Positions 4,460 to 53,900 of a stretch of DNA of 64,000 nucleotides are shown here, one piece after another. Position 1 is the stretch's first letter. Every line of letters begins with the position of its first letter. Position numbers and translations under genes: made by a program. This DNA comes from an uncultured bacterium (GTDB lineage Bacteria; Muiribacteriota; CAYSPT01). Location: positions 64,912-128,911 of the forward strand of contig CAZQHK010000005.1 in NCBI GenBank assembly GCA_964593455.1, given 5' to 3'. A model generated the notes under the pieces. The model had not been told where the DNA came from. It was given only the letters and a program-made list of their open reading frames with translations, and searched no databases.

Positions 4460-4509
4460 GAAATATTCACCTCGCGTATGGCCAAGCCCGAGCGCCCTCC
4501 GGCCGGCGG

Positions 4510-5088
4510 TCAATCATTAATTACCAGAATCCTCTTGCTGGCTTCAACTACTTTATCAACCAGTTTCCCGGTTAGCTTCTTCACCCGGCCGTAGCGATGC
4601 ATGACGATTGGCTGCAGCGCCAACCCCATGATCATACCAGCAGCCAGGACCGGATCGTCAACCTCGGAACCGCTTTCCATGATAACGGCCCCGATGAATC
4701 TGATGACCAGGTCGTTTGGGTTTCGGGCCTTATCGAGCAGCTTCACACCCGGAAACCCATGCTGAGTAAGAAGGATGAAAGAAAACTGTAAAGGATGAGC
4801 TTCATAATAACTATAGAGATATCGAATACCGGCTTCCAGTTTATCTCCTGGCGTCGCAGCCGGCTCAAACAGGATTTTCTGCAGGTCGGCGCTGAAGTGC
4901 TCGACCTCACGACAGAACAACTTCCAGGCCATATCGTTTTTACCGCTGTAATGCCGGTAGAGGGCTCCTTCGGTAACGCCGGCTTCCAGAGCAATATCCC
5001 GGATGGTGGTGCTGGCCAATCCCCGGGAGGCAAACAAACGGATAGCCGCGTTTTCAATACTCGATTTTTTCACTGCCGGCCTGGCCAA
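4510..5088 (-). CDS. TetR/AcrR family transcriptional regulator
   Basis: 192 aa with N-terminal HTH TTIRDIALEAGVTEGALYRHY. TTG start with GGAGG 7 nt upstream. It abuts the downstream fusion gene, so the two are probably one operon. Confidence 0.85.
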   Translation of the reverse strand: MARPAVKKSSIENAAIRLFASRGLASTTIRDIALEAGVTEGALYRHYSGKNDMAWKLFCREVEHFSADLQKILFEPAATPGDKLEAGIRYLYSYYEAHPLQFSFILLTQHGFPGVKLLDKARNPNDLVIRFIGAVIMESGSEVDDPVLAAGMIMGLALQPIVMHRYGRVKKLTGKLVDKVVEASKRILVIND

Positions 5089-5105
5089 TATTCAACCTCC
5101 ATTAA

Positions 5106-5123
5106 TAAGTAAACGTTTACTTA
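5106..5123. promoter_or_regulatory. perfect 18-bp palindrome, likely TetR operator
   Basis: TAAGTAAACGTTTACTTA lies 18 nt upstream of the tetR start. It overlaps the predicted transcription start of the promoter at 5129-5157. Confidence 0.55.
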
Positions 5124-5128
5124 CTTTC

Positions 5129-5157
5129 ATAATACATCGGTCAAGTAGACTTGTCAA
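5129..5157 (-). promoter_or_regulatory. sigma70-type promoter for the tetR-fusion operon
   Basis: The reverse strand reads TTGACA - 17 nt - TATTAT. Confidence 0.5.
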
Positions 5158-5181
5158 GTTAAAGTTAAAATCTATCACCTT

Positions 5182-5206
5182 CCTTTCTACAGCAGGAATT
5201 TAGAGG
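5182..5206 (+). repeat. family-A repeat, variant copy
   Basis: Sequence cctttctacagcaggaatttagagg, followed by the gattgagat module at 5210-5218. Confidence 0.5.
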
Positions 5207-5225
5207 CTGGATTGAGATGATCTCA

Positions 5226-5248
5226 CCTCAAGTAAAAAGTGCGGAAAG
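5226..5248 (-). repeat. family-A repeat core, reverse orientation
   Basis: The plus strand cctcaagtaaaaagtgcggaaag is the rc of ctttccgcactttttacttgagg. The flanking module gtgaggttggagattttgaagat (5248-5270) recurs as its rc at 43307-43327. Confidence 0.65.
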
Positions 5249-5306
5249 TGAGGTTGGAGATTTTGAAGATTGAGATATGATATTTCATTTTCTATTTCAT
5301 CACCTT

Positions 5307-5337
5307 ACTTTCTACGCTGATATTCCAGAGGGTGGGA
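5307..5337 (+). repeat. family-A repeat, long variant
   Basis: actttctacgctgatattccagagggtggga is near-identical to 33724-33754 (actttctacactgatattccagagggcggga). Confidence 0.8.
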
Positions 5338-5581
5338 GGGTATGTAGAAGCTCACACTACGCCTCTGCAAACATGAAGGTGCTAAAGTTAGCCGGGTGGT
5401 CCCGCCCTGCTATGAGATTATTAAAAATTAATTTAGGACGAAGGAACTGCCATGTGCGTCTAAAGGGGTTAGAACGTTCGCGGGAGAGCGGAACAAACGG
5501 CCCTTGATGGAGCCGTTCCCCGTTTTTGACGCGGTCCTTGTTTTTGCGCTATAGTAGCAATAATAAGAATGGCATGGGGAT

Positions 5582-8500
5582 ATGGTGATTTCCGTCAAAA
5601 ACATCAAATGTTCCGGCCCTTTTTTAACGATATTGCTAGTGGCGCTGTTTTTATCCGATATCACCTGTCCCGCCAGTTTTGCTACAACTCCCCTGCCCTT
5701 CCCGGAACTACCGAAAGCCGATGTGGGAATCACACGGGCCGTGTACCGGGCCGCGATCAACCTCGAAGGAACCGCGGCCGACGGAGATAATCTCATCCCC
5801 GTCGAGGTAACTGTTACCGGACAGGCCGTGGGAGAGGGATGGGCCAGGAACCGGATCTTCCCGCAAGCCATGCCGATCCAGGACTTCCCCGGCTCCGAGG
5901 ACCTGTTTCTGGATTTTGCCGACGGAACCTACCTCAGTGCCAGGGCTCCTTCAGAATTTTCGTTTCTGTTTTCTATTCCCACCAGGCCTGAACCGAGCAA
6001 TAATGGACACTCGCTTCGCATCCCGGTCGTTTTCGCCAGCGTGACTCGAATCGAGCTCACCGTCACCACACCGGACAACCGGCCGGTTACAATCACCACC
6101 GACCCTCCGGCACCGGTCACCAGCACACTGAATGATGATTCGTGGAAGGTGTCCGTAACACCCGCGCCGGGAACCACACTTGATCTGACCGTGGCGGCTG
6201 AACCGGCAACGGCCAGGGCGGCCACCTTTTCAGTATCACAGGACCTCTCGGTTTTCATGGCTCCGGGACTGGTGGAAACGAATATCGGCTGCACCGTTCA
6301 GCCTCTGCAGGGTTTAACCGACCGGGTTATCATTGAAACCGACCGGGTAATCACCGGGCTCATGGGGGAGATGATTGAATCCTGGAACGAGGAGGTTTCC
6401 GAAACAGGAAAAAGCATCGTCACCCTCAAGCTCTATTCGGCCCTTGAAGCATCATTCGCCTTCAGGATACTCTTCCAGGCGGAGCATCCGCCGGGAGCCC
6501 CTTTCACCATTCCGTCCGTAGATTTCCCGGAAGCGGCCAAGGTTTCCGGAACCATTACCATCCGGACCGAGAAGAACTATTACCCAGTGGAAGAATCAAC
6601 TCTCAACGTGAACCGGTTATCAGCAGCCAAAGACCAGATTGCCTACCATTTTGACACTCCCGATTACCGGCTCACCATGGGTTTGAAACCGGATCTTCTC
6701 AAATTCGATGCCCGGGGCACCGTCCTCATCGAGATATGGCCTGACATGATCAGGACCATTGCCGACATCGAGCTGGACGTCATATCGGGCTCGCTTGAAA
6801 CCTGCGCGATCAGGCTGCCCGCTGAATTCCGCTGCCAGTCCGTCAGCGGCAGCCGGATCTCCGGCTGGAAACCCGCCACGGGCGGTATCTCCGTCAATGT
6901 CGGCGGGTTGAGAGACGGGCAGACGGTTATGAAACTCGAAGGCTTCGTTCCTCTCCAAAAAGGGTATCCCCTGAAACTCAGGGTCCCAGAGTTCACTGGA
7001 GCGAGGAACTCTCATGGAATAGTAGGAATCCGTGTGCTTGGACACAAAATTCCCGAGGTGAACAAACCGGTCAATCTCTTCCAGACATCCAAAGTTAATC
7101 TGCCGGCGTGGATGAAAAATATATCGCTGGCCTTCCAATATAGCGGAAAGAACATCTCCGGCAACATCGCGCTCGTCAAACCCGTTCCCACCGTCGACAT
7201 CCAATCGGTGACCCTGCTGGAGATCACCAATACCAACGTGATTCAGGAAACCAGGGCCAGAATCACCGTCAACCAGGCTCCCCTGTTTTGCCTGTCAATC
7301 ATCCCTGGCGGGAACGCAGAACTGGATGAAATCAGCGGAGCTCTACTGGCGGACTTCGAACGCGGTCCGGAGGGAATAGTCACCTTGCGATTCACCCGCC
7401 CGCTGGAACCGGGAAAAACAGAGGAATTCAGTTTCATCACCCTGCGGCCCAGGCCGGAAGGGAACGACATTCGGTTTCCTCTGCCGGCCTATCCGGGCGC
7501 CCGTCATGTTGAGGGATACGTGGCCGCCAAAAGCCGGGTAGAAGCCATGCTTTCCTGGAAACAACTGGGCAAAGCCGAGGAATGCGGACCAGGACAACTA
7601 CCTTACACCTGGTTTACTATCGGCCGGGGCGATCACCTGTTGACCTTCAGGCATCCGGGCACGGTGAACCTGACCATGAAACAGCTGCCTATCAGGTTCA
7701 AACAATCGAGCGAATCCGTGTTCACCATCTCGCCGTCCCTGGTGGCCGCTTCATCCCGGGTCACCCTGAACATCGAGCAGGGGGGAATGAAATGGATCTT
7801 GCTGAAGCTGCCGGATGGAGCTAAAAAACCGGAGATACGGTCCCATTTCCTGGCCGGTGTTCAGCCTTTTAAAGACGGCTGGAGGATCGAGTTTTCATCG
7901 ATCTTAAAAGGAGAGACAACCCTGGCCGTCGATTATTCCATTCCGTTTGAGCAGTCCGCCGGGTTTATCGAGCTCGCCCCGCCTGAATTCAGCGGCCGCT
8001 CCCGCCATACCGGTGTTCTCGGATTCAAGAGCACCAGCGACATCGAACTCACGGAGTCATTTGACGGCATGCAGGGACTGGCCAGGTTGAAAGGCACCCC
8101 TCCTCCTGACCTGAAAGACATTCACAGCCTTTACCGCCTGACGGAAGCAGGTTTTCCCCGTCTCAAACTCTTGATCTCCAAGGTCCAGCACCAGGAGAAA
8201 CAGAAAGCCGAGATAAGCGAACTGACTCTTCAGACCCTGATGGAGTCGGACAGTGCCGTCATGACCGGCGTCTCGGCCAAAATCAACAACCCGGGAAACA
8301 AGCAGTTTCTCAAGGTATGGCTGCCCGAAAGCGCCGAATTGTGGGGAGCTTACGTCGACGGAAAACCGGTCAAGTCGGGACAAGAAGAATCAGACGGGCC
8401 GCCGGCACATACTATACCGCTTATTACGAAACAAGCGGACCGCTCATTCACCATCCAACTCGTATACAGACAGGCGGGAATCGACCGTTTTTCCACTGCC

Positions 8501-11329
8501 GGAAAAGTCTCCCTGCAGGCCCCGCAAATGGATGTTCCCGTGGGTAAGGTCTCCTGGGATGTACAGATCCCCGAAGGCTACCGCTTGATGATGCCGGGGG
8601 GGAACATGGCCCTGGTGCGTAGCCCACGCTTGGACACTCCCGGAATAGCGGACGTCTTCGTTCGCTCGCTCTCGTCCATTCTTTCTTGGGCAACACCCTA
8701 TCTCAGAGCCCTGGGATACCTCCTGGGTACTCTGTTGACCTGGCTCTGGTACGCCGTTTTGATCGGGCTTCTGGGCGGGCTGGTTTACCTGGGGATACTG
8801 GCCGTCGTCTGGTTCCTCAAAGTCATGGTCCGGATAGAGATCGGGCCGTCCCTGGAGTTCGCCACCAAGGCGCTCATCTTGCTGTTCATCATCGGAATAT
8901 TCGCCGCCATCTCGATGCCCCAGTTCGCCTCCATGAGCGATGACTCCAAGATTGCCAAGACCAAGCAGGACATCGATGTCATCGTCGGCGCTGTAACCCG
9001 CTTCAACGCCATGGAACCGAGGAAAGCTGAAACACTTAACGATCTCAAGGGTAAGTACCTGGTAAAACTGCCGGTAGATTCCTGGGGATACAATTACTAT
9101 CTTAACAAGCAGCAGGGCGTCATCGGGAGCCCCGGGGAAGACGGGATGAGGGGCACCCGGGACGACGTCTATATCTCCTACCTGCCCGACCTCGATACAC
9201 TTCAGCAGCATCCGGAGATGCTCCAGGAACTTATCGCCGACGGGTATGACCCGAATTACGCCGATTCACCGCGATTCCAGGAACCCGTGACCGTGGCCAA
9301 AAAACCATCGATGATGGATAAAATCAGGGACATCGAATTTCCGGACATCGGTCTGGCAAACTTCAACCGGGCCAGGCTCCAGGCCCGCGGGAAAGCCTGT
9401 TCGGCCAATATGCGGGTGCTGGAAGGCGCCATCGACATGTGGGAGATGGATGTCGATGACAAGGCTTTCAATGATGGCCGTGACTGCGCCCTGAACTATT
9501 CCGGGGGAAGATTCACTCAGGAAGGAAAATTTCTTACACCGACCTACGTTAAAAAGATCCCCCAGTGCAAAAACGGCGGCCAGTACCGGTTTCACAGCGC
9601 CACCCATTCAGTGTGGTGCACCAAGCACAACACCGTGGAAGAACCCATGATGGCCGGAGACCGGCCGGCACCCGGACCCGGAGGCGGCGGCGCTATCGCT
9701 TCTACCAGGCTAAAATCCGAAGAGAGCAGATTCAGCTCCATGGAACGGGGACTAAGTGAAGACGAACTTGTTGAAGGCGATTATGATATAGAGAAACTTG
9801 GGAAAACAAAGCGAATACCTGAACTGGTATTACCAGCTACCCTGGGAGCGCTTCAGCTCGATACCGAGGAAAATCAGAATATTTCCCATGCAGAGCATGT
9901 CCTGGGCGAAGTTGGGCACGGCGCGCCGGAAAAAACCATGGCCGATCCCGAAACGATCAAGAGCAATCTCAAGCGGCTTAACCAGGCGAGAGACTCGCTT
10001 AAGAAGAGCTGGCACGAACTCAGGATAGCCGCCGGGCGTTATCGCATCCCGAAAAATGACCCGGAAGAGTTCGGGCGTTTAGAAGAGAAACATGCCGCTA
10101 CCGAGCAAAAGCTCAACGCGGCCATCGTGAAGCAGGAAAAGGCCCTGGAGTCCCTGCAGCAGCAGGTGGCCGAACGACAGATGGAGAAGGCGGCCCGGCT
10201 GATGCAGGAACAGAAATACGACGAGGCCGTATCGATCTACCGCGACCTGCTTGGTTCGCCGCTTCGCAAGACAGCTGAGATAGCCCTTAAAAATTCCCGG
10301 GAGATGAAAGAGGAGCGGGCGAAACGGGACAAAAAACGCAAGAATAAAGGCGCCCAGGAGCAAGAAGAGGTCAAACGGAAAGTGGACGAGATCAGGCGTC
10401 TCTACATCGACCGGGCCCTGGCCCAGGCGGCGGTTGCCCGGGCGGCAGGAAAAAAAGACGGTTACCGGAGAAAAGAGACGAGCAGGCTGGTGGCTGAAAA
10501 GCTCGATAAAGCCGAGAGCCTCCTCCTGGAACTCAAGGACACACCCGACCGCCGGCAAGCCCTGAATGAGATCGCCGACACCCAGAGGCAGCTGACTTCA
10601 GCCGGGGAACCATCTTCGCCGATTGAAATTCACGATGACACTGAACCTAAAGAAGAATTAAAGAGCAGTATTCCCCAAAAGAGCCTTGAGCTGAAGCGAG
10701 AAGACAGAGAATCCATGGCCACCATCGTCCTGAATCCCGGCGACCTGGAGATGCTCAACATCAGCAGTAAAGACCTGGCCTCCGGGCAGGCGGAAACAAA
10801 ACTTAGAGAAAAGCTATCCGGTTCAGGGGAGCGCACCCCCCGGGTCATGAAATACGGTGACTCGCTGGTGGTCATCGGCGACGAGCAAACCGGGCGGATC
10901 ATCGAGCGTCTGAAGAGGACCACCAGTGTCCCGGCGCCGGCGGAACACGCCGAACTGCTTTTACCCCAGTCTTCCGCCCCGGCGGCGCCGATAGAGCCGG
11001 CCTTCCCGGTACAGAAGATCCAGCAGAACCTGTTGGCCTCTATTCACCGGGGACTCTCCCGGGGCGCTCTTCCCCTGGAGATATCGCTGCCCACCAGCAC
11101 CATCTCGTACGGGTTTTCGCGCGGACGGGCGGGACACACCGTCCCGAAGATCAAGTTCCGCTGTTTCCAGAGAAACAGCGTCTACGCCTGGAGTGTGGGA
11201 GCCGTGGGACTGCTGGTCCTATTGGTCGGTTTAGTCACCATGAGAAAGCCGCGTCCGGTACGCGAGGAAGTTTTTTTACTCGAAAAAAATACTTCATATG
11301 AAGAAAACAATGATTTGTTAAACGATTAA
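5582..11329 (+). CDS. giant (1915 aa) envelope protein: signal peptide, tandem beta-rich modules, TM cluster, internal GspG-like pseudopilin module, second pilin-like head, long charged coiled coil, C-terminal TM anchor
   Basis: A single long ORF. The N-terminal hydrophobic segment is FLTILLVALFL. The repeat modules are shared with the next gene. Pilin-like helix plus head: EFATKALILLFIIGIFAAISMPQFASMSDDSKIAKTKQDIDVIVGAV...DSWGYNYY...GEDGMRGTRDDVYISY. The K/E/R-rich region spans roughly aa 1400-1700. The last TM is VGAVGLLVLLVGLVTM. Confidence 0.85.
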   Translation: MVISVKNIKCSGPFLTILLVALFLSDITCPASFATTPLPFPELPKADVGITRAVYRAAINLEGTAADGDNLIPVEVTVTGQAVGEGWARNRIFPQAMPIQDFPGSEDLFLDFADGTYLSARAPSEFSFLFSIPTRPEPSNNGHSLRIPVVFASVTRIELTVTTPDNRPVTITTDPPAPVTSTLNDDSWKVSVTPAPGTTLDLTVAAEPATARAATFSVSQDLSVFMAPGLVETNIGCTVQPLQGLTDRVIIETDRVITGLMGEMIESWNEEVSETGKSIVTLKLYSALEASFAFRILFQAEHPPGAPFTIPSVDFPEAAKVSGTITIRTEKNYYPVEESTLNVNRLSAAKDQIAYHFDTPDYRLTMGLKPDLLKFDARGTVLIEIWPDMIRTIADIELDVISGSLETCAIRLPAEFRCQSVSGSRISGWKPATGGISVNVGGLRDGQTVMKLEGFVPLQKGYPLKLRVPEFTGARNSHGIVGIRVLGHKIPEVNKPVNLFQTSKVNLPAWMKNISLAFQYSGKNISGNIALVKPVPTVDIQSVTLLEITNTNVIQETRARITVNQAPLFCLSIIPGGNAELDEISGALLADFERGPEGIVTLRFTRPLEPGKTEEFSFITLRPRPEGNDIRFPLPAYPGARHVEGYVAAKSRVEAMLSWKQLGKAEECGPGQLPYTWFTIGRGDHLLTFRHPGTVNLTMKQLPIRFKQSSESVFTISPSLVAASSRVTLNIEQGGMKWILLKLPDGAKKPEIRSHFLAGVQPFKDGWRIEFSSILKGETTLAVDYSIPFEQSAGFIELAPPEFSGRSRHTGVLGFKSTSDIELTESFDGMQGLARLKGTPPPDLKDIHSLYRLTEAGFPRLKLLISKVQHQEKQKAEISELTLQTLMESDSAVMTGVSAKINNPGNKQFLKVWLPESAELWGAYVDGKPVKSGQEESDGPPAHTIPLITKQADRSFTIQLVYRQAGIDRFSTAGKVSLQAPQMDVPVGKVSWDVQIPEGYRLMMPGGNMALVRSPRLDTPGIADVFVRSLSSILSWATPYLRALGYLLGTLLTWLWYAVLIGLLGGLVYLGILAVVWFLKVMVRIEIGPSLEFATKALILLFIIGIFAAISMPQFASMSDDSKIAKTKQDIDVIVGAVTRFNAMEPRKAETLNDLKGKYLVKLPVDSWGYNYYLNKQQGVIGSPGEDGMRGTRDDVYISYLPDLDTLQQHPEMLQELIADGYDPNYADSPRFQEPVTVAKKPSMMDKIRDIEFPDIGLANFNRARLQARGKACSANMRVLEGAIDMWEMDVDDKAFNDGRDCALNYSGGRFTQEGKFLTPTYVKKIPQCKNGGQYRFHSATHSVWCTKHNTVEEPMMAGDRPAPGPGGGGAIASTRLKSEESRFSSMERGLSEDELVEGDYDIEKLGKTKRIPELVLPATLGALQLDTEENQNISHAEHVLGEVGHGAPEKTMADPETIKSNLKRLNQARDSLKKSWHELRIAAGRYRIPKNDPEEFGRLEEKHAATEQKLNAAIVKQEKALESLQQQVAERQMEKAARLMQEQKYDEAVSIYRDLLGSPLRKTAEIALKNSREMKEERAKRDKKRKNKGAQEQEEVKRKVDEIRRLYIDRALAQAAVARAAGKKDGYRRKETSRLVAEKLDKAESLLLELKDTPDRRQALNEIADTQRQLTSAGEPSSPIEIHDDTEPKEELKSSIPQKSLELKREDRESMATIVLNPGDLEMLNISSKDLASGQAETKLREKLSGSGERTPRVMKYGDSLVVIGDEQTGRIIERLKRTTSVPAPAEHAELLLPQSSAPAAPIEPAFPVQKIQQNLLASIHRGLSRGALPLEISLPTSTISYGFSRGRAGHTVPKIKFRCFQRNSVYAWSVGAVGLLVLLVGLVTMRKPRPVREEVFLLEKNTSYEENNDLLND

Positions 11330-11360
11330 ACGAAGAAATGAAAAGGAGGCAGCTACTACT

Positions 11361-14300
11361 ATGAAACATCGTACTTTAAAAACCATTCTGCTGGTTTTCG
11401 CCATGGCCGTCATGGCTTGCGCGCAGGTTTTGGGAGCAAGTCCGTGGGGACAGGTCATCGTTGACGACGAGGATGTGAGGCCGCCGGTTGACGCGGTCAT
11501 CAACTCTTACTTCGCCGAGGGCGAAGTGGCGGAAGATATCGCCATGTTCAACGCAGCCGTGTCTGTGTCCGTGTTCGCCGACGGCTGGGTTGAGGTGCCG
11601 CTTATCAAGAACTGCTCAGTGATGGATTTCAAGGTCACCGACGGCGACGAGAAAAAGGTCCTCTTCACCCGTAAAGAGGAGGGCTATGTCCTGCTCTGCG
11701 GTAAGCCCGGCAACTACAAACTTTCCCTGGATTGCGTTTCCCGGGTGGAAAGCTCCGGCGCTCAACGGGAACTGATGGTCCCTTTTGCCGCTGCCGTCAG
11801 CCGGCAGACCGTCGTGGTCATCCCGGAGGAAGTGGCGGAAATCGAAGCCTTCCCGGAAGTAAAACTCTCCCGGACCATCAAGGAAGAAAAGACCCGGGTC
11901 GTGCTCTATGGAGGCGACCCGGAAGGGATCACCCTGGCCTGGCGGATAAGGCCCGGTATAACAGCTCTCAAACCCCTCATCTTCGCCGACCAGTCCATCC
12001 AGGCCTCCCTCAGCCGCGGTGTCATACGTACCAACTGTACCATTACTTACACGGTCCTGCAGGGGACCGTAGACAAACTCTCTCTCTCCTGCCCTCCCGA
12101 CTGTAACCTGCTGGAGGTAAACGGTGATGAGATAAAGACCTGGAACTTAAGCGGCGGCGAGGACGGTTCGGCCCAGGAACTTGAAGTAGTGCTGGCCAAA
12201 CCGGTCCAGAAACACTATACCCTGACCGCATCACTGGAGCGGCCGCTCGATAAACTTCCCGGCGAGGGAATCATCCCGTCGCTCACCGTGAACGGCGTGA
12301 AACGTGAACAGGGAATCATCTCCATCTACGCCCAGAAGGGTTTGAAGATCGAACCCGGCACCGTCCAGGGCGCCAGCCAGTTCGATGTGCACGAGGTCAA
12401 AGACTCATCCATATCCAGCGACTTCCGGCTGGGCCTGGCCTACAAGTACTTGAAACGGCCATTCTCCCTGGGAATCGCCGTCTCCCTGATCCAGTCCAAG
12501 GTCAGCGCCGAGACAGCGACCCTGTGCCAGGTCTCCCGGGAGCTCATCCGGGCCATCAACACCATCACTTACACCATCCAGGACGCGGGGATATTCAAGC
12601 TCCGTTTTTCCCTGGAAGACGACTGTAAGCTGGTGGACATCAAGGGAAAGAACATCAACAACTGGCGGATAAAAAACAACCTGGTGACGGTGGACCTGCG
12701 CTCGGCGGCGGAAGGAAGTTACGAGCTTTCGGTGGAGGTGGAGAAGCCGACCGGGGGTAAAGACAGCGCCACGCTGCCGACCATCACCCTGCTGGATGTT
12801 ACCCGCCAGACGGGGTACATTGCCGTCTCTCCACGGCTCGACACCAAGGTGGAAGCGGTCTCGTCTTCGGGCGCCAGCCAGATCGACATCAAGGACCTGC
12901 CCCTCAACTTGAAACGGGTCCCGGAAGGTGTGAGCCAGGCGTACCGCTACATACGTTACCCGTACACCATCGAGATATCCATCGGCCAGATCCAACCGGA
13001 GGTCTACGCCGATGTCAACACCCGGTTCAATATCAAGGAAAAGGAACTTATCATGGATACGCAGATGAGTTTCGATATCCGCAAAGCCGGTATCTTCGAG
13101 CTGCGGATCGGGTTTCCCGACCGGCTGCGCCTGGTCGACACGGTACATGGAGATTTCATCGAAGACTGGCGGATCGATTCCCAAAAGGAGCTCCTGATCG
13201 TCAGTTTCCGCTCGAAGGTAGACGGCCAATACGTGTTAACGCTCTCGGCCACCACCAACCTGGACGATCTTTCCACCGGGCTCGAACTACCGGTGCTGGT
13301 AGTGCAAGGAGCTAAAAAGGAACGAGGTTACGTGTCGGTGCAGACCGAGACCAGTATCCGCATCAAAACGGATACGTCGCAAAACGTCTCCGAGATAGAC
13401 GTGCTGGAGCTGCCCAACTACTTCAAACTGGGCGGCGGCGAGATCTCGCTGGCTTACAAATATTTCCGGCAGCCCTGGTCGGTGTCCCTGGCGGTAGAGC
13501 CGATCGAACCGGTAGTCACCGCCGAGGTGTTCAACCTGGCTTCTATCGGCGAAGGACTGGAACAGAACAGCTGCCGGGTCGATTACACGATCCAGTTTGC
13601 CGGCGTGTCCACCTTCGCTCTGCAGCTGCCACCCGGAGCCAAGAACGTGAATATTGCCGGGAACAACCTCAAGCACTGGGAAGAAAGCGGCAGCCAGCCT
13701 GGCCGCTGGGAGGTCGAACTCCAGGCCAAGGCCAAAGGCAATTACATTCTCTACGTGGCCTTCGAGCGAGCCATGGAAAGCGCATCGGGCCAGATCGAGT
13801 ATAGCGGGGTGAAGACCCTGGGTCTCGAACGGGAAAAAGGATATATCGCCGTCACTCCCCACGGCAACGTGGAGATCACTCCCATAGAGGAGAATATCAA
13901 AGGCGTCGCCCCCATTGACAGCACCGAAATTCCATCACAGTTCACACAGGGCATCACCGTGCCCGTCATTTGGGCGTTCAAGTACATCTCCCATCCCTTT
14001 ACCATCGGACTCTCGGTCATCAAGCACCTGGACGTGGAAGCCCTGGTCACCGTGGCGGAGAGTACCCGGCTGGTGACCCTGGTGAGCGAAGAGGGAGAGA
14101 CGATAAATGACCTGACCTTCATCCTCAAAAATACCCGGAAACAGTTCCTGCGCCTGATGCTCCCGGACGGAGCCACGGTGCTCGACGCCTTCGTCGGGGA
14201 TCGCTCGGTCCAACTGGGAGAGACAGAGATAGAGCTCGATGGCAGCAAACAGCGGGTCACCATGATCCCTATCTCCGGAGCGGCCCAGCCCGGCGTCAGT

Positions 14301-15254
14301 TTCCCGGTCAAGATACTCTATGAACAGAAGTTCGAGCCGATGGGTTACTCCGGACCCCTGGGCCTGATATGCCCGAAAGTTGACGTGCCGGTGATGCGTC
14401 TGGCCTGGGACCTGTACCTGCCCAAAGAGTACAACCTCAACCTGGTGGCCGGCGACCTCAGGCAAATCAAACATACCAGTTATATCTCCAGCGGCGTACA
14501 GAAAGTGCAGAAAGAGTACAATTCCTGGGCACGAAGCCAGAAGGCGGGCCAGACGAGCAGACCGTTCAATATAATCCAGGAGAACCTGGAACGCCAACAG
14601 CTCGGGCAGGGCAAAGCCGTGTTCGCCGGCGGCCGCAGCGCCGTGGCCCAGAACATCGTCGAACTGCTCAAGAAAGGCAGACCGTTCTATTTCGAGAAAC
14701 TGATAGCGGTAGTACCCGGGGTAGGAGAAAAATCCATGTTCATGGTACCAGGCACACTCTCCATCCGGTACGTGAAAAGCGCCTTGAACACCGTCTCCGC
14801 CGGGATCATTTTCATTATCCTGGTGGCCGCCAGCGCGCTTCTCAGGACCCTGAAACAATTCCAGCAGCTCGTCTTCCCACTGGCCGCCGCTTTGCTCCTG
14901 ACGGCTTTCCACCTGCTCCGGCCGGACGCATACACCAATAATATCCAATGGGCTATCGGCACCACCTGGCTGATCTTTATTATCAGCTTCTTCTACGCCG
15001 CCCTGTCGGCGCTCAACCGCTCGATTACACGGCGGCAGAAACAAAAGGTCGAGCGCGCCGAAGAAGTTAGGCAGCGGCTCAGAAAGTCATACCTGGTAGC
15101 CGGGGATGTGCCTCCCCGGGCTGATAAACATTCCGGGGACAACCAACCCGAGTTTCCAGGAAATTCCCCGGATGAACCCGAGAAAGAGAAGAAAAAACCG
15201 GTAAACAAGAAATCAAAACCCAAGTCCCGCAAACCAGACTCGACGGAGGAGTAG
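11361..15254 (+). CDS. giant (1297 aa) envelope protein, paralogue of the N-terminal 1000 aa of the preceding gene; 3 C-terminal TM helices and a Lys-rich tail
   Basis: AAGGAGG RBS. Signal peptide MKHRTLKTILLVFAMAVMACAQVLGA. Four ~175-aa modules each end in [AF][YF][KR]Y..xP[FWY][ST].x[LI][AS]V. The terminal module KVDVPVMRLAWDLYLPKEY matches QMDVPVGKVSWDVQIPEGY in the preceding gene. Confidence 0.85.
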   Translation: MKHRTLKTILLVFAMAVMACAQVLGASPWGQVIVDDEDVRPPVDAVINSYFAEGEVAEDIAMFNAAVSVSVFADGWVEVPLIKNCSVMDFKVTDGDEKKVLFTRKEEGYVLLCGKPGNYKLSLDCVSRVESSGAQRELMVPFAAAVSRQTVVVIPEEVAEIEAFPEVKLSRTIKEEKTRVVLYGGDPEGITLAWRIRPGITALKPLIFADQSIQASLSRGVIRTNCTITYTVLQGTVDKLSLSCPPDCNLLEVNGDEIKTWNLSGGEDGSAQELEVVLAKPVQKHYTLTASLERPLDKLPGEGIIPSLTVNGVKREQGIISIYAQKGLKIEPGTVQGASQFDVHEVKDSSISSDFRLGLAYKYLKRPFSLGIAVSLIQSKVSAETATLCQVSRELIRAINTITYTIQDAGIFKLRFSLEDDCKLVDIKGKNINNWRIKNNLVTVDLRSAAEGSYELSVEVEKPTGGKDSATLPTITLLDVTRQTGYIAVSPRLDTKVEAVSSSGASQIDIKDLPLNLKRVPEGVSQAYRYIRYPYTIEISIGQIQPEVYADVNTRFNIKEKELIMDTQMSFDIRKAGIFELRIGFPDRLRLVDTVHGDFIEDWRIDSQKELLIVSFRSKVDGQYVLTLSATTNLDDLSTGLELPVLVVQGAKKERGYVSVQTETSIRIKTDTSQNVSEIDVLELPNYFKLGGGEISLAYKYFRQPWSVSLAVEPIEPVVTAEVFNLASIGEGLEQNSCRVDYTIQFAGVSTFALQLPPGAKNVNIAGNNLKHWEESGSQPGRWEVELQAKAKGNYILYVAFERAMESASGQIEYSGVKTLGLEREKGYIAVTPHGNVEITPIEENIKGVAPIDSTEIPSQFTQGITVPVIWAFKYISHPFTIGLSVIKHLDVEALVTVAESTRLVTLVSEEGETINDLTFILKNTRKQFLRLMLPDGATVLDAFVGDRSVQLGETEIELDGSKQRVTMIPISGAAQPGVSFPVKILYEQKFEPMGYSGPLGLICPKVDVPVMRLAWDLYLPKEYNLNLVAGDLRQIKHTSYISSGVQKVQKEYNSWARSQKAGQTSRPFNIIQENLERQQLGQGKAVFAGGRSAVAQNIVELLKKGRPFYFEKLIAVVPGVGEKSMFMVPGTLSIRYVKSALNTVSAGIIFIILVAASALLRTLKQFQQLVFPLAAALLLTAFHLLRPDAYTNNIQWAIGTTWLIFIISFFYAALSALNRSITRRQKQKVERAEEVRQRLRKSYLVAGDVPPRADKHSGDNQPEFPGNSPDEPEKEKKKPVNKKSKPKSRKPDSTEE

Positions 15255-15258
15255 AACC

Positions 15259-16800
15259 ATGAGCATGGATCGCAGAACGATCGAGACGGCGCGGTTTTTG
15301 ATTCCGGCCGGCCTGTTGGCGTTCCTTATTCTAGGCTGCCTCCCGGTTCCGGGAGCAGAGGCCGTTTCTCTCCCCAGAGCGGTCCGCCTGGAGCTGAAAG
15401 TGGTGGATATGCCGCTTGGCATATGGGAAAATTTGAAAGATGTAACCATCCAGCGGGGCCGCGTAGGGAGTATCCCCACAGATAAACTGAAATGGCTTAC
15501 AAAAGAGATGTCGCGGGAAGCCTCAAAAATCTCCCTGCTCTCATCGGCGTCCACGGTGATGTACCTTGACTCGATGTCTGAAATCATGATCGGCCGGGTA
15601 CCGGGCTACGCGGGGCGGTATAAAAAAGCGGCCAACGGTCCCCTGCCCGTCCGTGAGAAACTGCTGCTGGGACTCTGGGGCCGGTTCCGGCTCTCGTCCC
15701 TCAAGCAGGAGGATGAGGAACTGGAAGCCCTGATCTCTTGCCAACTGGCCATGGTGCGTCCGGGGAAGGATGCCGACGGAGAAAAACAGTTTCTCCGCCA
15801 GGTTGCAACTCCCAGCGGACCGCTGGAAGTCCCGGAGGTAAAAGGATTCCACGGCTGCCTTTCAATCCAGGTTAGAGACGGAGAAACCCGCGTTCTGGCA
15901 GCCTGCGCTTCTCCTTTTACCGGCTCCGCCGGTGACACGGGTGACGCCCGGACAACCCTGGTCCTGCTCAAAGCTTTGTTCCTGGATGAAGCGACCGGAC
16001 CGATCACGACTCCTCTCACATCACGGGTTGAAAAAAACGCTTCATCAAAGCGCAATCCCGGTAAATTTCCCATACCCGATGAACAGGGACAAAACCTCCT
16101 GATCGATCCTTCCGAACAACGCGATAGTAAATTTTTCCTGCCCAGCCTCTTTCTGTCTCCCGACACGGCTCCCGTGCTGATTTCGGGAAAAGTGCTTCGT
16201 CTGCCGGTCGAGCTGGTGGATTACATCTTGAAACGTTACATCAACAAGAACGGCGAGATCGATGACCGGGGCCGCCGGCTGCTCGGCAAAGCCATCAAGC
16301 AGAAGATAGGAACCATCGTAGACAGTTTCGACCTGTTCAGTCTCCGAAACTCATTCTTCCGCCTGGTCTATGGCCGGGAACACGGATTCCTGGCCCGGCA
16401 CGAGGCCTACAGCTTTAAAGGGGGCGACGGTACAGCCTACGGCCTGGTACCGATTGAAGACAGTGTCCTGCAGGGTATGGAACTATCCGGCAGCCTGCTG
16501 GTAAAACCAGATAACCAACTGATTATGAACCTGACCTACACACCCGATGTATCCATCCGGGAAACCACCCACACCTGGGGAGGGCTGCCGGCCGCAGGTG
16601 AGGATGAAAAGAATACGTCCCGGACACCGGCAACCATTGTTGTGGAGCAGCCCGAGACGGTACAGATGAAGATGGCCCTGCGCTACCCGATGCGATTCAA
16701 CACCACGATCATTACCCAAGATTTAGGGTTGCGGGAAGAGGCAGGCAGGCACTCCGGGAAACTGGAGAAATACGTCTTCCTGATCAGGGTGACCGAGTAG
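15259..16800 (+). CDS. exported (possibly lipo-) protein with two degenerate secretin-like modules; function unknown
   Basis: Starts 4 nt after the previous stop, with GGAGGAG RBS. Signal peptide with FLILGC. The strand pattern resembles a secretin C-domain (see finding), but the call is weak. Confidence 0.75.
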   Translation: MSMDRRTIETARFLIPAGLLAFLILGCLPVPGAEAVSLPRAVRLELKVVDMPLGIWENLKDVTIQRGRVGSIPTDKLKWLTKEMSREASKISLLSSASTVMYLDSMSEIMIGRVPGYAGRYKKAANGPLPVREKLLLGLWGRFRLSSLKQEDEELEALISCQLAMVRPGKDADGEKQFLRQVATPSGPLEVPEVKGFHGCLSIQVRDGETRVLAACASPFTGSAGDTGDARTTLVLLKALFLDEATGPITTPLTSRVEKNASSKRNPGKFPIPDEQGQNLLIDPSEQRDSKFFLPSLFLSPDTAPVLISGKVLRLPVELVDYILKRYINKNGEIDDRGRRLLGKAIKQKIGTIVDSFDLFSLRNSFFRLVYGREHGFLARHEAYSFKGGDGTAYGLVPIEDSVLQGMELSGSLLVKPDNQLIMNLTYTPDVSIRETTHTWGGLPAAGEDEKNTSRTPATIVVEQPETVQMKMALRYPMRFNTTIITQDLGLREEAGRHSGKLEKYVFLIRVTE

Positions 16801-16876
16801 CTCTGAAACACATACACAGGAAAATGTGGTATCGACCATCTGTCCGCCCTTCGCATTGATCACCCGAAACCAGAAC

Positions 16877-16905
16877 TTGACGATATATCCCGGCGCCAAT
16901 ATAAT
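16877..16905 (+). promoter_or_regulatory. sigma70-type promoter for the GH16-TolB operon
   Basis: TTGACG - 17 nt - TATAAT, about 100 nt upstream of the GTG start at 17004. Confidence 0.6.
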
Positions 16906-17003
16906 TAATCGAACCACAATAAATATCTTAGATTTTCCATAACCTTAACCTGGCTTTTGGATTTTTGGCTTTTCCGTGATGGCAGAGTGGAGATTAGCAA
17001 CCG

Positions 17004-19415
17004 GTGAAACAATCACTTAAATTTTTTGCAGTGGTTTTTATCACAGCCATGCTGTTGCCGGTAACCCAGGCCGGCGGCGTGTCCCTGATCGAAGACTGGC
17101 CGACGGGATCGGGATACAACTGGCAGGTCCGGCAGGCGGAGGCCGAAGGGCCGGGACCCAACGACTGGAGCAGCGATAACGTGGCGACGCGGGCCGGTAA
17201 CCTGGTTCTGAAACTGGTTTACCGTGACGACCGTTGGACCAGCGCGGAGGTGACACTTGAGAAAGACGGACAGGAGCATTTCGGGTTCGGGACGTACCAG
17301 TTCACGGTAACCGGACCGGTGGATTTTGCCGAGATGCATCCTAATATCGTGCTCGGTTTCTTCCCGTACGCTACCAATTACAAGCTCGACAAAACCAACG
17401 AGATCGACATAGAGATCACCAAATGGGGACCGAAGAGCCCCATTCCGTTCATCCGCAAAAACAATCTCCACTACACCATCTACCCGGCTATCAGCCAAAC
17501 GGGATACCGCAACAAGACGAAGCCGTTTTTTATCTCTGGAAAGACCCATACACACCGGTTTATCTGGCAGAGTCACCGGATTGTGTACCAATGTTTCGCT
17601 CCAGTGGACGGAGTGGAAACAGAGCTGCATCGATGGACCTACCAGCCCGAAAACCCGCGAAAATACATTCCTCAATATCCGCTGGAGTTTCACATCAACC
17701 TGTGGCTTTTCCGGGGCGATAAACAGGAGTTTGACGATTTTATCGACGAGACGCTGCCCCGGGACCGGGACTTCAAGATCGTCATCAGCGATTTCAAATT
17801 TAATCCGCTGCCCGAGACCAGGGTACCCCGGACCGATGAAAGCTCTGCGGGTCACAATGTTCCGGTGAAAAAAGGGCGGATCGCCTACCATTCTTACAGC
17901 CATCCCCTGGTGTTCACCAATAATCCGAACGAAGGGCACATTTTTGTCGCGGATCTCCAGGATAGCCGGGTAAACAAATTGACGGACGGAATCACCGGAC
18001 CCGTGCTCGGTTACGCCATGAATCCGCACTTTTCTCCCGCCGGTGACCTGGTCACCTTCATGGCTGTTCCGGCAGAACTCAGCCCCTGCTGGGAGAATAT
18101 GTATGTGTATCTTTACGATGTTGTCTACGACCGGCTCTACAAGCTGCACCGGGGGCAGGATCCGAAGTTTTCCCCGGACGGCCGCTCCATCGTCTTCAAG
18201 TACCTGGAGTCGCTGGACCGGACGGGCGAAGCCGCGGAGAAATCGAGTCCGGCTTTCGACCAGTGGCAGGTTTGGACCATCGACCTGAACGGCGGCAACC
18301 AGGTCCGCATTACCTCGTCACCGGGTGAGAAATCAGGACCGAACTTTTCACCCGATGGATCGCAGATCGTGTACTGGATTTCGTTTGCTTCGGACCAGAA
18401 GACGGAACATGATATCTACCGTATCCGCTCCGACGGGACCGGTGAGAGGAAAGTGCTTGGTGAACCCGGTCTCCAGGAGATGTACCCGATATTCCGCGAT
18501 AACGACCGGATACTCTTCACCCGCTGGGCGACGCCCTCGGACCACTCGGACAAGCTCTACCAGTACCGGCTTTCCACCAATGAATCGAAACCGCTGGAAG
18601 CGGTTAATTTCAAATCACTCACGGGGAAAAAGGCCAACGATTCAGATCCGTTTCCCCTGGGCCCCGGCTTGATCGGATTCTCCTCCGACCGGCCTGGGAA
18701 CCTGGGTGGCTGGGACATCTATATAGCCAACCCCGACGCCGAGAAACCTATGCCGTTGTTCGGATCACTCGGCCGAAAAACGGTCTACGCTCTGCCCGGT
18801 ATGAACGATTACCTGCACAACCTGGGCGGTGTCTATTCTCCGTTCAGCACGGAGGAGGTAAAGCTGCGCATGATCGGCGGCGATAGGCTGGCCACCCTGG
18901 CGGACAAGCTGGTCTGGGGAACTCCGGAAGATAGAGACGATGGCGGGACTGATGGAGAGAGTTCTTACACGGTCTTTATCGAGCCCGGCGACGAGGCCGA
19001 AATCGAGCCGTTCGTATCCACCGGCAGCAGCGGACCGGTGACCAGGTTCAAGATGAAAGCTACCTGGTGGAGCCACTTCACAGCCTGGTTGAAAAACGCT
19101 TTTGCCGGCCATGAAAACACGCCGGAGCAAGACGCAAAGCCGGTCCCGGTCCGGTTTGTTTTTCCGCTGGAAATCGATGGCTCGCGGGCGGCACTCTCCG
19201 GCGACACGGTGTTGATCAAAAACCGATCTGGCCGAACGGTACTGGTAGCACTGGATCCACCTGACGCCGGCGGTACCGCTTCTCTCGAGGACGGCGATGA
19301 AAACGCCTTCAGTGTTGAAGAAATAAACGAAAAGCTTGTTTTACGATTTATAGTTGGGGAAGAAACCATCAGTGAGGAAATTTCCGTCGGCAGGACAGAG
19401 TCCCGCGAACAATAG
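17004..19415 (+). CDS. secreted glycoside hydrolase family 16-like domain fused to a TolB-type (PD40) beta-propeller
   Basis: GTG start with signal peptide. GH16 catalytic signature E-I-D-I-E (TNEIDIEITKWG). PD40 repeats HFSPAGDLVTF, KFSPDGRSIVF, NFSPDGSQIVYW and GFSSDRPGNLGGWDIYI. Confidence 0.75.
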   Translation: MKQSLKFFAVVFITAMLLPVTQAGGVSLIEDWPTGSGYNWQVRQAEAEGPGPNDWSSDNVATRAGNLVLKLVYRDDRWTSAEVTLEKDGQEHFGFGTYQFTVTGPVDFAEMHPNIVLGFFPYATNYKLDKTNEIDIEITKWGPKSPIPFIRKNNLHYTIYPAISQTGYRNKTKPFFISGKTHTHRFIWQSHRIVYQCFAPVDGVETELHRWTYQPENPRKYIPQYPLEFHINLWLFRGDKQEFDDFIDETLPRDRDFKIVISDFKFNPLPETRVPRTDESSAGHNVPVKKGRIAYHSYSHPLVFTNNPNEGHIFVADLQDSRVNKLTDGITGPVLGYAMNPHFSPAGDLVTFMAVPAELSPCWENMYVYLYDVVYDRLYKLHRGQDPKFSPDGRSIVFKYLESLDRTGEAAEKSSPAFDQWQVWTIDLNGGNQVRITSSPGEKSGPNFSPDGSQIVYWISFASDQKTEHDIYRIRSDGTGERKVLGEPGLQEMYPIFRDNDRILFTRWATPSDHSDKLYQYRLSTNESKPLEAVNFKSLTGKKANDSDPFPLGPGLIGFSSDRPGNLGGWDIYIANPDAEKPMPLFGSLGRKTVYALPGMNDYLHNLGGVYSPFSTEEVKLRMIGGDRLATLADKLVWGTPEDRDDGGTDGESSYTVFIEPGDEAEIEPFVSTGSSGPVTRFKMKATWWSHFTAWLKNAFAGHENTPEQDAKPVPVRFVFPLEIDGSRAALSGDTVLIKNRSGRTVLVALDPPDAGGTASLEDGDENAFSVEEINEKLVLRFIVGEETISEEISVGRTESREQ

Positions 19416-24707: not shown

Positions 24708-25513
24708 ATGAAATATAGGAGCCTTGCAGTAATCGTAGTTTTGGTACTTGTTGCCGGTTTTTCACCGATCCCAGCCGTTCCGGAGAAATTCTCAACCAGA
24801 ATCTTTCCGACACGCTAAAGGCAGACCTCGAGCTCAGACACCGGCTGGAGTCGAAAGACAACTTCGATTTCAATGATGCCATTAACGACGAGGATGCCTT
24901 TCACCTGGTGCGAACCCGCCTGATGCTTAACTGGAAGCATCAGGAGACCACCAGGATTTTTTTCCAAGTGCAGGACGCCCAGGCGTCAAATGTGGCCGGC
25001 GGCATCCGCGCTTTCATGACGGTACTCGGAGCCGGCTACACCTGGAACGATTCCCGCTCGACCCGCCTGGCTTTCGAGTGGGCCCACGCTTCCGGTGACG
25101 ATAACAACGCCGACAACAAACGCGAAACCTTTGACAACCTCTACCCCACCAACCACCTCCATTACGGATTCATGGACCGGGTGAGCTTGCAGAATATCGA
25201 CAACTACCGCCTGCAACTCAGCGCCAAACCGCAGTCAAACCTCAAGGTGCAGCTCGATTATCACTTTTTCTACCTGGACACGGTAAACGACTCGCTCTAC
25301 GCGGCCAACCGGGCGGCCATCCGCACCGCCGCCACGACCGGAGTGAGCGATCACGTGGGTAACGAGATCGACTTGTTGTTGAAGTATAAGGCAAACGCTA
25401 ATCTCAGTTATCTGGCCGGTTACTCCCGTTTCTCCGCCGGCGATTTTCTGAAAAATACCGGTTCCGGAGACGACGGCGATTATTTCTACATCCAGACAAC
25501 CCTGAAGCTGTAG
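24708..25513 (+). pseudogene. alginate-export (AlgE-like) family outer-membrane porin, interrupted by a frameshift between signal peptide and barrel
   Basis: RBS gagagggagag plus ATG at 24708 encode MKYRSLAVIVVLVLVAGF, but that frame stops at 24816-24818. The barrel (LKADLELRHRLESKDNFDFND ... YFYIQTTLKL) is in the -1 frame, which is open from 24719. A T5 run lies at 24758-24762. Confidence 0.55.
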
Positions 25514-28042: not shown

Positions 28043-28046
28043 CGAT

Positions 28047-53885: not shown

Positions 53886-53900
53886 AACCATATCCTCCTA

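Follow-up and report, generated by a model that had tools for sequence, protein, structure and literature searches.

Two adjacent giant repeat proteins from an uncultured bacterium are the split form of a large unnamed protein family

A locus of two giant genes and a coupled third gene

We analysed a 64,000-nucleotide stretch of DNA from an uncultured bacterium (contig CAZQHK010000005.1, positions 64,912 to 128,911 of the forward strand), referred to here as the window and numbered from its first nucleotide. The subject of the analysis is a group of three co-directional open reading frames (ORFs), of which the first two encode giant proteins made of tandem repeats. A preliminary description of this DNA had read the group as an operon for a surface or trans-envelope apparatus consisting of two paralogous giants, a pseudopilin module and a secretin-like partner. 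We find that ORF1 and ORF2 belong to a very large family without a name, of which they represent the split-gene form; the family occurs in Planctomycetota, Verrucomicrobiota, Lentisphaerota and allied lineages, among them Candidatus Muiribacteriota. The three genes lie exactly where they had been placed:

5582-11329, + strand: ORF1, 1915 aa, the first giant (half A of the split pair)
11361-15254, + strand: ORF2, 1297 aa, the second giant (half B) and the best conserved of the three genes
15259-16800, + strand: ORF3, 513 aa, an exported, fast-evolving, lineage-specific partner

The gaps between the genes are 31 nt (ORF1 to ORF2) and 4 nt (ORF2 to ORF3). Both of the ribosome-binding sites that had been claimed were located: AAAAGGAGG lies 11 nt 5' of the ORF2 ATG, and GGAGG lies within the last ORF2 codons, 8 nt ahead of the ORF3 ATG. 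No terminator-like site was found on the + strand between the three genes. They form one tightly coupled unit, the order of which is kept in the closest relative (locus L001) and, between different flanks, in a Candidatus Muiribacteriota metagenome-assembled genome (MAG; locus L004). The same order is seen in identical or related copies on independent contigs, which rules out an assembly chimera or artefact. ORF3 is, however, absent beyond the lineage of the window and Muiribacteriota; at least 14 other genomes have the pair without ORF3, followed by unrelated housekeeping genes. ORF2 is 75% identical in L001, 55% in Candidatus Muiribacteriota and 33% in a third relative, as against 48%, 29% and 22% for ORF1.

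Both giants carry the same modules in the same order

BLASTP aligned ORF1 aa 16-1025 to ORF2 aa 8-1049 with 21% identity (E 1.5e-44) which, together with module-by-module profile matches, bears out the proposed paralogy. The motifs said to close tandem modules were all found at their positions, with a period of ∼170 aa. Internal repeats were not detected by BLASTP self-comparison; the repeats were tested by cutting family alignments at these motif positions and comparing the pieces profile against profile (hhalign). The four repeats of ORF2, R1-R4, matched one another pairwise with probabilities of 99.4-99.9% (E 1e-21 to 1e-36), and those of ORF1 with 98.3-99.4%; ORF1 therefore contains four repeats rather than the three originally listed. 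In ORF2 the N-terminal (N) and terminal (T) modules are distinct from the R repeats, with T weakly related to the first half of an R repeat (88% probability). The terminal module is indeed shared by the two giants (99.8% between ORF1 T and ORF2 T, E 6e-29). Each ORF1 module found its best match in the ORF2 module of the same rank, i.e. N with N, R1 with R1 and so on to T with T (E 1e-21 to 1e-29), and therefore the entire six-module ectodomain was duplicated as a block. A search of the other ORFs of the window with hidden Markov models (HMMs) found no further N, R or T modules.

Both proteins thus share the layout of signal peptide, N, four ∼170-aa repeats, T and transmembrane (TM) helices, and the signal peptides, TM cluster and charged tail that had been described are present by hydropathy and sequence. 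The parts common to the two proteins, and the C-terminal part of ORF2, are as follows (a slash marks a cleavage site set by eye):

5582-5683, + strand: ORF1 signal peptide, aa 1-34; hydrophobic aa 14-32, then SFA/TT
5684-6196, + strand: ORF1 N module, aa 35-205; hhalign against ORF2 N 99.4%, E 3e-21
6197-8209, + strand: ORF1 R1-R4, aa 206-373, 374-540, 541-706 and 707-876; hhalign
8210-8617, + strand: ORF1 T module, aa 877-1012; hhalign as above, and HMM independent E-value 6e-21
8708-8809, + strand: ORF1 first membrane span(s), following T, aa 1043-1076; hydropathy maxima 1.7 and 2.6
11361-11438, + strand: ORF2 signal peptide, aa 1-26; hydrophobic aa 8-26 ending VLGA/S
11448-11984, + strand: ORF2 N module, aa 30-208; hhalign, and all-beta in the AlphaFold model, with a predicted local distance difference test (pLDDT) score of 80-90
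11985-14051, + strand: ORF2 R1-R4, aa 209-385, 386-551, 552-722 and 723-897; hhalign, and beta strands in the model
14052-14465, + strand: ORF2 T module, aa 898-1035; hhalign, and aligned to relative P0012 and to both T modules of the fused relative P0008
14784-15026, + strand: ORF2 three-TM cluster, aa 1142-1222; hydropathy, and three low-confidence model helices
15027-15251, + strand: ORF2 lysine/arginine-rich tail, aa 1223-1297; sequence

Conserved residues in and near the TM region of ORF2 are P1130, Y1137, G1148, L1178, L1186, Y1191, T1201 and Y1212. By the positive-inside rule the basic tail of ORF2 would be cytoplasmic. ORF1 aa 1043-1076 could be one span or two, as judged by analogy with the two-TM pattern of the fused relatives described below.

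Most family members are fused into a single chain

We defined the family by a 302-position profile of repeat plus T (alignment A3) and scanned representative clusters exhaustively with the corresponding HMM. The profile matched 7,542 representative clusters at E<=0.001, 5,110 at 1e-10 and 2,633 at 1e-30. A word-indexed homologue search was far less sensitive (12 matches for ORF2, 2 for ORF3) and taken by itself would have given the false impression of a rare family.

Modules were mapped in the best 149 of the 7,542 representatives, which share with ORF1 and ORF2 the plan of a signal peptide, N, three or four R repeats of ∼170 aa, T and TM helices. In 134 of these 149 there were two T modules within single proteins of 2,100-2,600 aa, laid out as a signal peptide, N-R-R-R-T, two TMs, a variable region of 200-700 aa, more TMs, a second N-R-R-R-T, ∼200 aa and a last TM. 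Of the 12 relatives of ORF2 from the word-indexed search, P0008-P0010, one of them from Pirellulaceae, likewise have two full units in a single chain, whereas P0011 and P0012 are short, have just one unit made of N, a single repeat and T, and carry CarboxypepD_reg domains.

Adjacent genes were examined by scanning one genome per GTDB species for ORF2-like genes, using the taxon labels of the MAG records. The relative at 55% identity belongs to Candidatus Muiribacteriota; others, at 32-36% identity, were found in MAGs labelled Planctomycetota, Phycisphaerae, Brocadiaceae, Lentisphaeria and Anaerolineaceae. In nearly all loci an ORF1-like gene (1,330-1,850 aa) lay immediately upstream of the ORF2-like gene, and the pair was adjacent and in the same order in L001, L004-L006 and L009-L023 (Planctomycetota, Phycisphaerae, Brocadiaceae, Lentisphaeria and Muiribacteriota MAGs), between unrelated flanks. 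Two units therefore occur either in one chain (the 134 of 149) or in adjacent genes, as in the window and its relatives. As most relatives are fused, the pair in the window is a split form of what is usually a single polypeptide. The fused relatives also suggest that ORF1 and ORF2 work together, a Rosetta-stone argument that is the strongest available.

Members of the family from Verrucomicrobiota and Lentisphaerota are named "hypothetical protein" in the databases; on account of a pilin-like helix, others go under "pseudopilin PulG" or "type II secretion system protein" (Roseimicrobium). The label "type II secretion system protein" is wrong for members of this family. A literature search on giant proteins of the Planctomycetes-Verrucomicrobia-Chlamydiae (PVC) group, pseudopilin fusions, bacterial ribophorin, Amuc_1098 and Akkermansia mucin-uptake genes found no description of the family.

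No conserved partner gene accompanies the giants. All-against-all BLAST of 17 loci, together with Pfam searches, found no conserved flanking gene, the giants being the only link between loci. Elsewhere the genes downstream of the pair include those for isocitrate dehydrogenase, triose-phosphate isomerase, Cas9/Cas1 and a histidine kinase, and the upstream ones include those for Hsp70, SelB, a polyprenyl synthetase and a spermidine-synthase fusion; fused members stand alone in their neighbourhoods. In one Phycisphaerae MAG (L022, 4097-8033) a Cas9-like gene (1018 aa) and cas1, identified by eye, lie directly 3' of the ORF2-like gene. One fused member (L025) has a pair of neighbouring DUF4139 genes (3308-6032) 4 kb upstream; a relation between DUF4139 and the family was considered and rejected, since hhalign found none to the R plus T profile.

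The ectodomain of ORF2 is modelled as an array of beta sandwiches

The repeat modules had been left without a named family, and this still stands, as no Pfam, NCBIfam or PDB sequence match covers them. Pfam and NCBIfam searches with ORF1-3, 12 module sequences and 21 fused relatives returned nothing for the N, R or T modules, and PDB sequence and profile searches (ORF1-3 and alignments A1, A3 and A4) returned nothing except weak GspG chains. Nor was there any match to a catalytic family in Pfam or NCBIfam for ORF1, ORF2 or the fused relatives.

An AlphaFold2 model of ORF2 aa 30-1229, built from a shallow alignment of 10 sequences, had a mean pLDDT of 76.6. The ectodomain (80-90) was entirely beta, each repeat including two strands of ∼23 residues, and was followed by three low-confidence helices. 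Comparison of this model with the PDB by Foldseek gave 125 matches at E<=0.001, all of them multi-domain beta-sandwich proteins. The top confident matches were chains of the oligosaccharyltransferase (OST) complex (probability 1.0, E 2e-9 to 4e-7, TM-score 0.23-0.31); others were integrin alpha chains, complement C5, CD109, alpha2-macroglobulins and ITIH1. Low TM-scores together with identities of 8-12% mean that the fold class is established and homology is not. A thioester motif (CxEQ), an LPXTG motif and a C-terminal PEP-CTERM signal were looked for in ORF1-3 and not found.

ORF1 contains a GspG-like domain and further C-terminal parts

Beyond its six modules ORF1 has a long C-terminal part with these features:

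8858-9226, + strand: pilin-like TM helix and GspG-like pseudopilin domain, aa 1093-1215; TIGR01710 and PDB profile matches
9329-9781, + strand: four-cysteine domain, aa 1250-1400 (cysteines 1273, 1302, 1329 and 1346); pilin-like only by eye
9782-10861, + strand: highly charged region, probably coiled-coil, aa 1401-1760 (K 10.8%, R 8.6%, E 12.5%)
10919-11326, + strand: C-terminal end module and last TM, aa 1780-1915 (TM 1867-1885); iterated jackhmmer

The pseudopilin module proposed for ORF1 is in part confirmed. ORF1 aa 1093-1215 has a GspG-type globular domain behind a hydrophobic alpha1 helix (the pilin-like span by hydropathy is aa 1093-1111), as in GspG/PulG. TIGR01710 matched aa 1098-1141 in two stretches with E 2.5e-8 and 34 bits, below the equivalog cut-off of 88.85 bits. 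PulG/GspG chains in the PDB matched the insert with E 8.7e-4 (5wda, the best) to 0.03, and the DxWG and SxGxDG motifs were aligned between them. Pseudopilins are small free-standing proteins encoded in gspC-M or pil operons, but this domain is built into a polytopic protein of 1915 aa and lacks the G-1, F+1 and E+5 signals: the sequence ahead of the helix, IEIGPSLEFATKALILL / IEIGPSLEFATK, has no G/F and no E at +5, and GPSLEFATK contains no G/F...E5 motif for prepilin cleavage and methylation. The GspG-like domain is thus real but, as far as its sequence tells, uncleavable and embedded. It is also of narrow distribution, since the insert and the four-cysteine domain are common to the window and L001 only and are missing from the Muiribacteriota ORF1. 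A PDB search with the four-cysteine domain gave no match.

Within the apparently low-complexity coiled coil there is a constrained element by sequence comparison, as ORF1 aa 1531-1677 (10172-10612) is 44% identical to the Muiribacteriota ORF1 compared with 29% for the ectodomain. The end module is more widespread: among the fused members iterated jackhmmer detected it in 133 of the 134 C-terminal regions and in 34 of the mid regions, and the ORF1-like genes of Planctomycetota loci have it too. In the fused proteins it follows the second periplasmic unit with no membrane span between. By analogy with this placement, and given that GspG-like and cysteine domains are expected in the periplasm, ORF1 aa 1112-1866 would be periplasmic.

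Pilin-like features recur among the relatives, so that the place of the insert is not arbitrary. Some 22-28 of the 134 fused relatives, about a fifth, have a pilin-like helix as the second TM behind their first unit, with LLPAL..K..K and NNLKQIG motifs, which are typical of PVC prepilin-like proteins. P0015 (2315 aa, from a Verrucomicrobiota MAG, L026) keeps at aa 885-955, in its second post-unit TM, a prepilin peptidase-like site RKGRG/LRLVEVLVV, and on this sequence might possibly be cut into two chains. Processing by prepilin peptidase as a general feature of the fused proteins was rejected, as a clear G-x4-E is present in 1 of 134 (P0015). The variable mid region of P0016 (L027), aa 978-1166, matches positions 246-453 of the Amuc_1098 pilus-secretin profile (E 3.7e-27) and, weakly, STN and Secretin_N in Pfam, and sits on an inner-membrane-anchored protein. 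The variable region of P0021 carries LysM.

ORF3 is probably a lineage-specific accessory protein and shows no sign of being a secretin

The proposal that ORF3 is secretin-like failed in every test that gave a usable result. Pfam had no family for ORF3 at E<=1 or for four ORF3 homologues at E<=10, and there were no N0/N1 domains (STN, Secretin_N) and no NCBIfam match in ORF3 or its homologues. A search of all PDB chains with the ORF3 family profile (hmmsearch) found no secretin at E<=10, and the hhalign probability against E. coli K-12 GspD was 0.15%. The AlphaFold model of ORF3, from a 2-sequence alignment, was unusable (mean pLDDT 30.3). An internal duplication of aa 38-260 and 295-513 is only suggestive (hhalign 27%, E 7e-4).

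Homologues of ORF3 were found only in close relatives of the window (44% identity) and in the Muiribacteriota MAG (21%). In the same genomes ORF2 is 75% and 55% identical, and ORF3 therefore evolves much faster. ORF3 has an N-terminal signal peptide; the cysteine of its LILGC sequence is not conserved in homologues, which makes lipoprotein status doubtful. The data support a role for ORF3 as an exported, translationally coupled, lineage-specific accessory protein outside the conserved core. In a 74% relative (L008, 5539-7247) the ORF3 homologue is broken up into overlapping ORFs of 373 and 230 aa, either by a frameshift, as a pseudogene or through an assembly error; it is intact in L001.

These results bear on the suggestion that the locus encodes a trans-envelope apparatus related to type II secretion systems (T2SS) or type IV pili (T4P), with ORF3 as outer-membrane secretin, ORF1 supplying a pseudopilus module and the giants forming an inner-membrane platform. 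Such an apparatus would suit the GspG-like domain of ORF1, the pilin-like helices at the same position in relatives, the N0/N1 domains of Amuc_1098 type in P0016 and the annotation of some members as type II secretion system proteins; in addition, the ORF3 motifs GPLPVREKLLLGLWGRF ... EALISCQLAMVRP recall by eye the end of a secretin domain. However, ORF3 has no detectable similarity to secretins (GspD, PilQ, the Amuc_1098 family) and is absent beyond the lineage of the window and Muiribacteriota, the sole link to secretins is the N0/N1 region of P0016, and no family member shows a C-terminal barrel-forming domain. The lack of a cleavage motif and the flanking membrane spans mean that the GspG-like domain could not be extracted into a filament, and the insert is missing from the Muiribacteriota ORF1 altogether. 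There were no T2SS or T4P genes among the scanned ORFs of the window, and no ATPase, platform protein, prepilin peptidase or secretin was seen there or beside the relatives. We regard a T2SS- or T4P-related machine as improbable.

The giants may form a periplasmic scaffold or tether

The explanation that we favour, tentatively and at a little short of an even chance, is that ORF1 and ORF2 are an inner-membrane-anchored heterodimeric periplasmic scaffold or tether and not an enzyme. A structural role in the envelope had already been preferred to an enzyme pathway, and it remains the more plausible, as the proteins are beta-array paralogues with no enzyme signature. In the proposed scaffold each giant would be exported by its signal peptide, would place an array of beta sandwiches of ∼1,000 aa (N, four ∼170-aa repeats, T) in the periplasm and would be anchored in the inner membrane by C-terminal helices. 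The ORF1 anchor would consist of a TM, the pilin-like TM, a second periplasmic region of ∼750 aa and the last TM, and that of ORF2 of three TMs and the basic cytoplasmic tail. The two halves would pair side by side through a common bundle of ∼6 TM helices, leaving ∼2,800 residues of the heterodimer in the periplasm. Variable periplasmic add-ons (GspG-like in the window; a pilin-like helix, a secretin N0/N1-like region or LysM in relatives) might dock the heterodimer to pilus- or secretion-type machinery or to peptidoglycan. ORF3 would be a translationally coupled, exported, lineage-specific accessory, i.e. a peripheral subunit.

The descriptive part of this explanation is much more secure than the functional part, and several points weigh against the latter. 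The contact between the two halves is our own inference, and the predicted topology draws on hydropathy and analogy. The ORF2 model has a predicted template modelling (pTM) score of 0.37, so the arrangement of its domains is undefined, and the Foldseek TM-scores of 0.1-0.3, at 8-12% identity, amount to a generic fold resemblance. The assignment of ORF1 and ORF2 to the halves of the fused proteins is contradictory, with the unit scores pointing weakly one way and the post-T regions another. The add-on domains occur in a minority of members and may say little about the core function. Finally, a fully extended array of ∼10 beta sandwiches would exceed the usual length of the periplasm.

The fold matches raise other possibilities. 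The giants could be an integrin-like receptor, in which the ectodomains sense an envelope or external ligand and the TM bundle relays the signal to the basic tails in the cytoplasm. Integrin alpha chains were among the best fold matches (Foldseek probability 0.97-1.0), and the leg domains (thigh, calf-1 and calf-2; for example PDB 8t2v, 3fcs and 4mmx; probability 0.85-1.0) are likewise part of a two-chain, membrane-anchored beta-sandwich array with short cytoplasmic tails; the type I-like membrane topology with short charged tails and the conserved polar residues in the TM region would also fit a receptor. There is, however, only a slim chance of this: the matches are limited to generic leg domains, the giants lack a beta-propeller head, a vWA/beta-I domain and any sequence similarity to integrins, the tails show little conservation and a low sequence complexity, and neither a signalling domain (Pfam, NCBIfam) nor a conserved signalling neighbour was found.

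Giant, repetitive, beta-rich exported proteins are typical of adhesins, and the pair could be cell-surface adhesins or S-layer-like coat proteins. We consider this very unlikely, since the multi-span C-terminal anchors and the N-terminal Sec signal predict retention in the inner membrane, there is no autotransporter barrel, type I or type IX secretion signal, LPXTG or PEP-CTERM, and the number of repeats, which varies in adhesins, is fixed and collinear between the paralogues.

The giants could also be a periplasmic protease trap or protein container, like bacterial alpha2-macroglobulin (ECAM/YfhM) or the recently described CAGE complex. ECAM shares with them a very large size and an inner-membrane-tethered array of periplasmic beta sandwiches. 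Weak fold matches to macroglobulin (MG) domains (C5, CD109, ECAM, TEP1 and A2M; E 3e-7 to 2e-5) point the same way. Bacterial CAGE proteins have been reported with signal peptides, in a paper that also discusses compartments of Planctomycetes, and they have a large alpha-helical domain and are homotetramers (bioRxiv 10.1101/2025.09.22.677704), an architecture that differs from that of the giants. The MG-domain matches had Foldseek probabilities of only 0.4-0.8, there was no A2M profile match in Pfam, ORF1-3 have no CxEQ motif and the modelled ectodomain has no helical thioester-type domain. The anchor of the giants is made of C-terminal helices, not of an N-terminal lipid attached at a lipobox. 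A trap or container is accordingly a very doubtful candidate.

The top fold matches, the OST chains 6s7o E, 8b6l O, 6c26 1 and 6ezn A, are given by the search with entry titles alone and we take them to be ribophorin I/Ost1, a non-catalytic scaffold subunit in which a beta-sandwich non-cytoplasmic ectodomain likewise precedes a membrane helix at the C-terminus. The alignments behind these matches (probability 1.0, E 2e-9) extend over several domains, with a root-mean-square deviation of >20 A. That the giants serve periplasmic glycosylation or protein maturation as a ribophorin-like accessory subunit is nevertheless extremely improbable: the TM-scores are 0.23-0.31 and the identities ∼10-12%, Ribophorin_I (PF04597) did not match ORF1, ORF2 or the 12 module sequences at E<=10, ribophorin I/Ost1 has two modules against ∼6 here and no sequence relationship to the paralogous pairs or internal duplicates of this family, and no STT3/PglB-type gene or other oligosaccharyltransferase partner was seen among the scanned genes of the window and the neighbours of relatives.

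We return to the favoured scaffold or tether and its wider meaning. The envelopes of Planctomycetota, Verrucomicrobiota and their relatives are unusual in their enlarged periplasm, crateriform structures and uptake of macromolecules, and to our knowledge the protein basis of these peculiarities is largely unknown. A more speculative extension, which we think would probably not hold in full, is that the N-R-T giants make up an undescribed, nearly phylum-wide component of the PVC-type envelope, i.e. a pseudo-dimeric (fused) or heterodimeric (split) megascaffold, anchored in the inner membrane, that organises or spans the enlarged periplasm and couples to pilus or secretion machines and to peptidoglycan through swappable pilin-like, secretin-N-like or LysM domains. 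If true, the giants would be envelope architecture proteins of a kind new to bacteria, without a characterised counterpart. The likeness of the family to named systems is at the level of generic fold only, and it is accordingly not a member or variant of one of them but a kind of envelope protein that has so far not been described. Its novelty lies in recognition and function and not in rarity, as the family is abundant in public data. For thousands of clusters of proteins of 1,300-2,600 aa each we found no domain model, name, structure or paper, which is a sizeable blind spot of annotation. A profile like A3 would allow the family to be recognised and would end the mislabelling as type II secretion system proteins. 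The split genes in the window offer a natural handle, since each half can be produced, tagged or deleted without the other; should the giants indeed be a scaffold or tether, the organisation of the PVC envelope would become directly testable.

The upstream region contains a promoter-like site

5526-5555, + strand: promoter-like TTGACG-18-TATAGT, with 10 of 12 consensus matches in the scan, 27 nt upstream of the ORF1 ATG

The 493-nt region 5' of ORF1 is shared with a divergent TetR gene (4510-5088, - strand). It had been described as a repeat-rich leader of ∼490 nt, which for the most part does not hold: it is mostly plain intergenic DNA with a single non-conserved repeat pair, and the promoter-like site would leave a 5' untranslated region of only ∼20 nt. 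When the region was aligned to L001, two conserved islands were found, a palindrome at 5107-5127 and the promoter-like site, both hexamers of which are conserved although the surrounding intergenic DNA has diverged. From its sequence this site has a putative promoter function, and the three genes are probably an operon with a short 5' untranslated region. The palindrome, TAAGTAAACGTTTACTTA, is perfect, adjoins the promoter on the TetR side and is probably a TetR operator. The only notable repeat in the region is a 17-nt direct repeat, ATCACCTT(C/A)CTTTCTAC, at 5174-5190 and 5299-5315 (spacing 125 nt), which is not conserved in L001. An Rfam scan of 4900-17200 gave no match. On the far side of the TetR gene, 581-4513 (- strand) encodes a 1310-aa Aas-like fusion of a major facilitator superfamily transporter with acyltransferase, phosphopantetheine-binding and AMP-binding domains.

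Other genes in the window

In a further giant ORF of 2505 aa (46374-53891, - strand) the Lamin Tail Domain (PF00932, E 1.9e-59) is repeated eight times and an FlgD Ig-like domain lies at the C-terminus; next after this ORF is a helix-hairpin-helix gene of ComEA-like type (45149-46360). An FlgE-like flagellar hook gene (40973-42694, + strand) stands apart from the other flagellar genes in the window. The 201-aa ORF at 24908-25513 (+ strand) matches the alginate export porin profile in its C-terminal part only (233-387 of 395 positions), and is either a truncated gene or one with a mis-set start. It is followed at 25661-29911 (+ strand) by a polysulfide/thiosulfate-reductase-like cluster that encodes a Tat-signal molybdopterin oxidoreductase, a 4Fe-4S protein and an NrfD-type membrane subunit.

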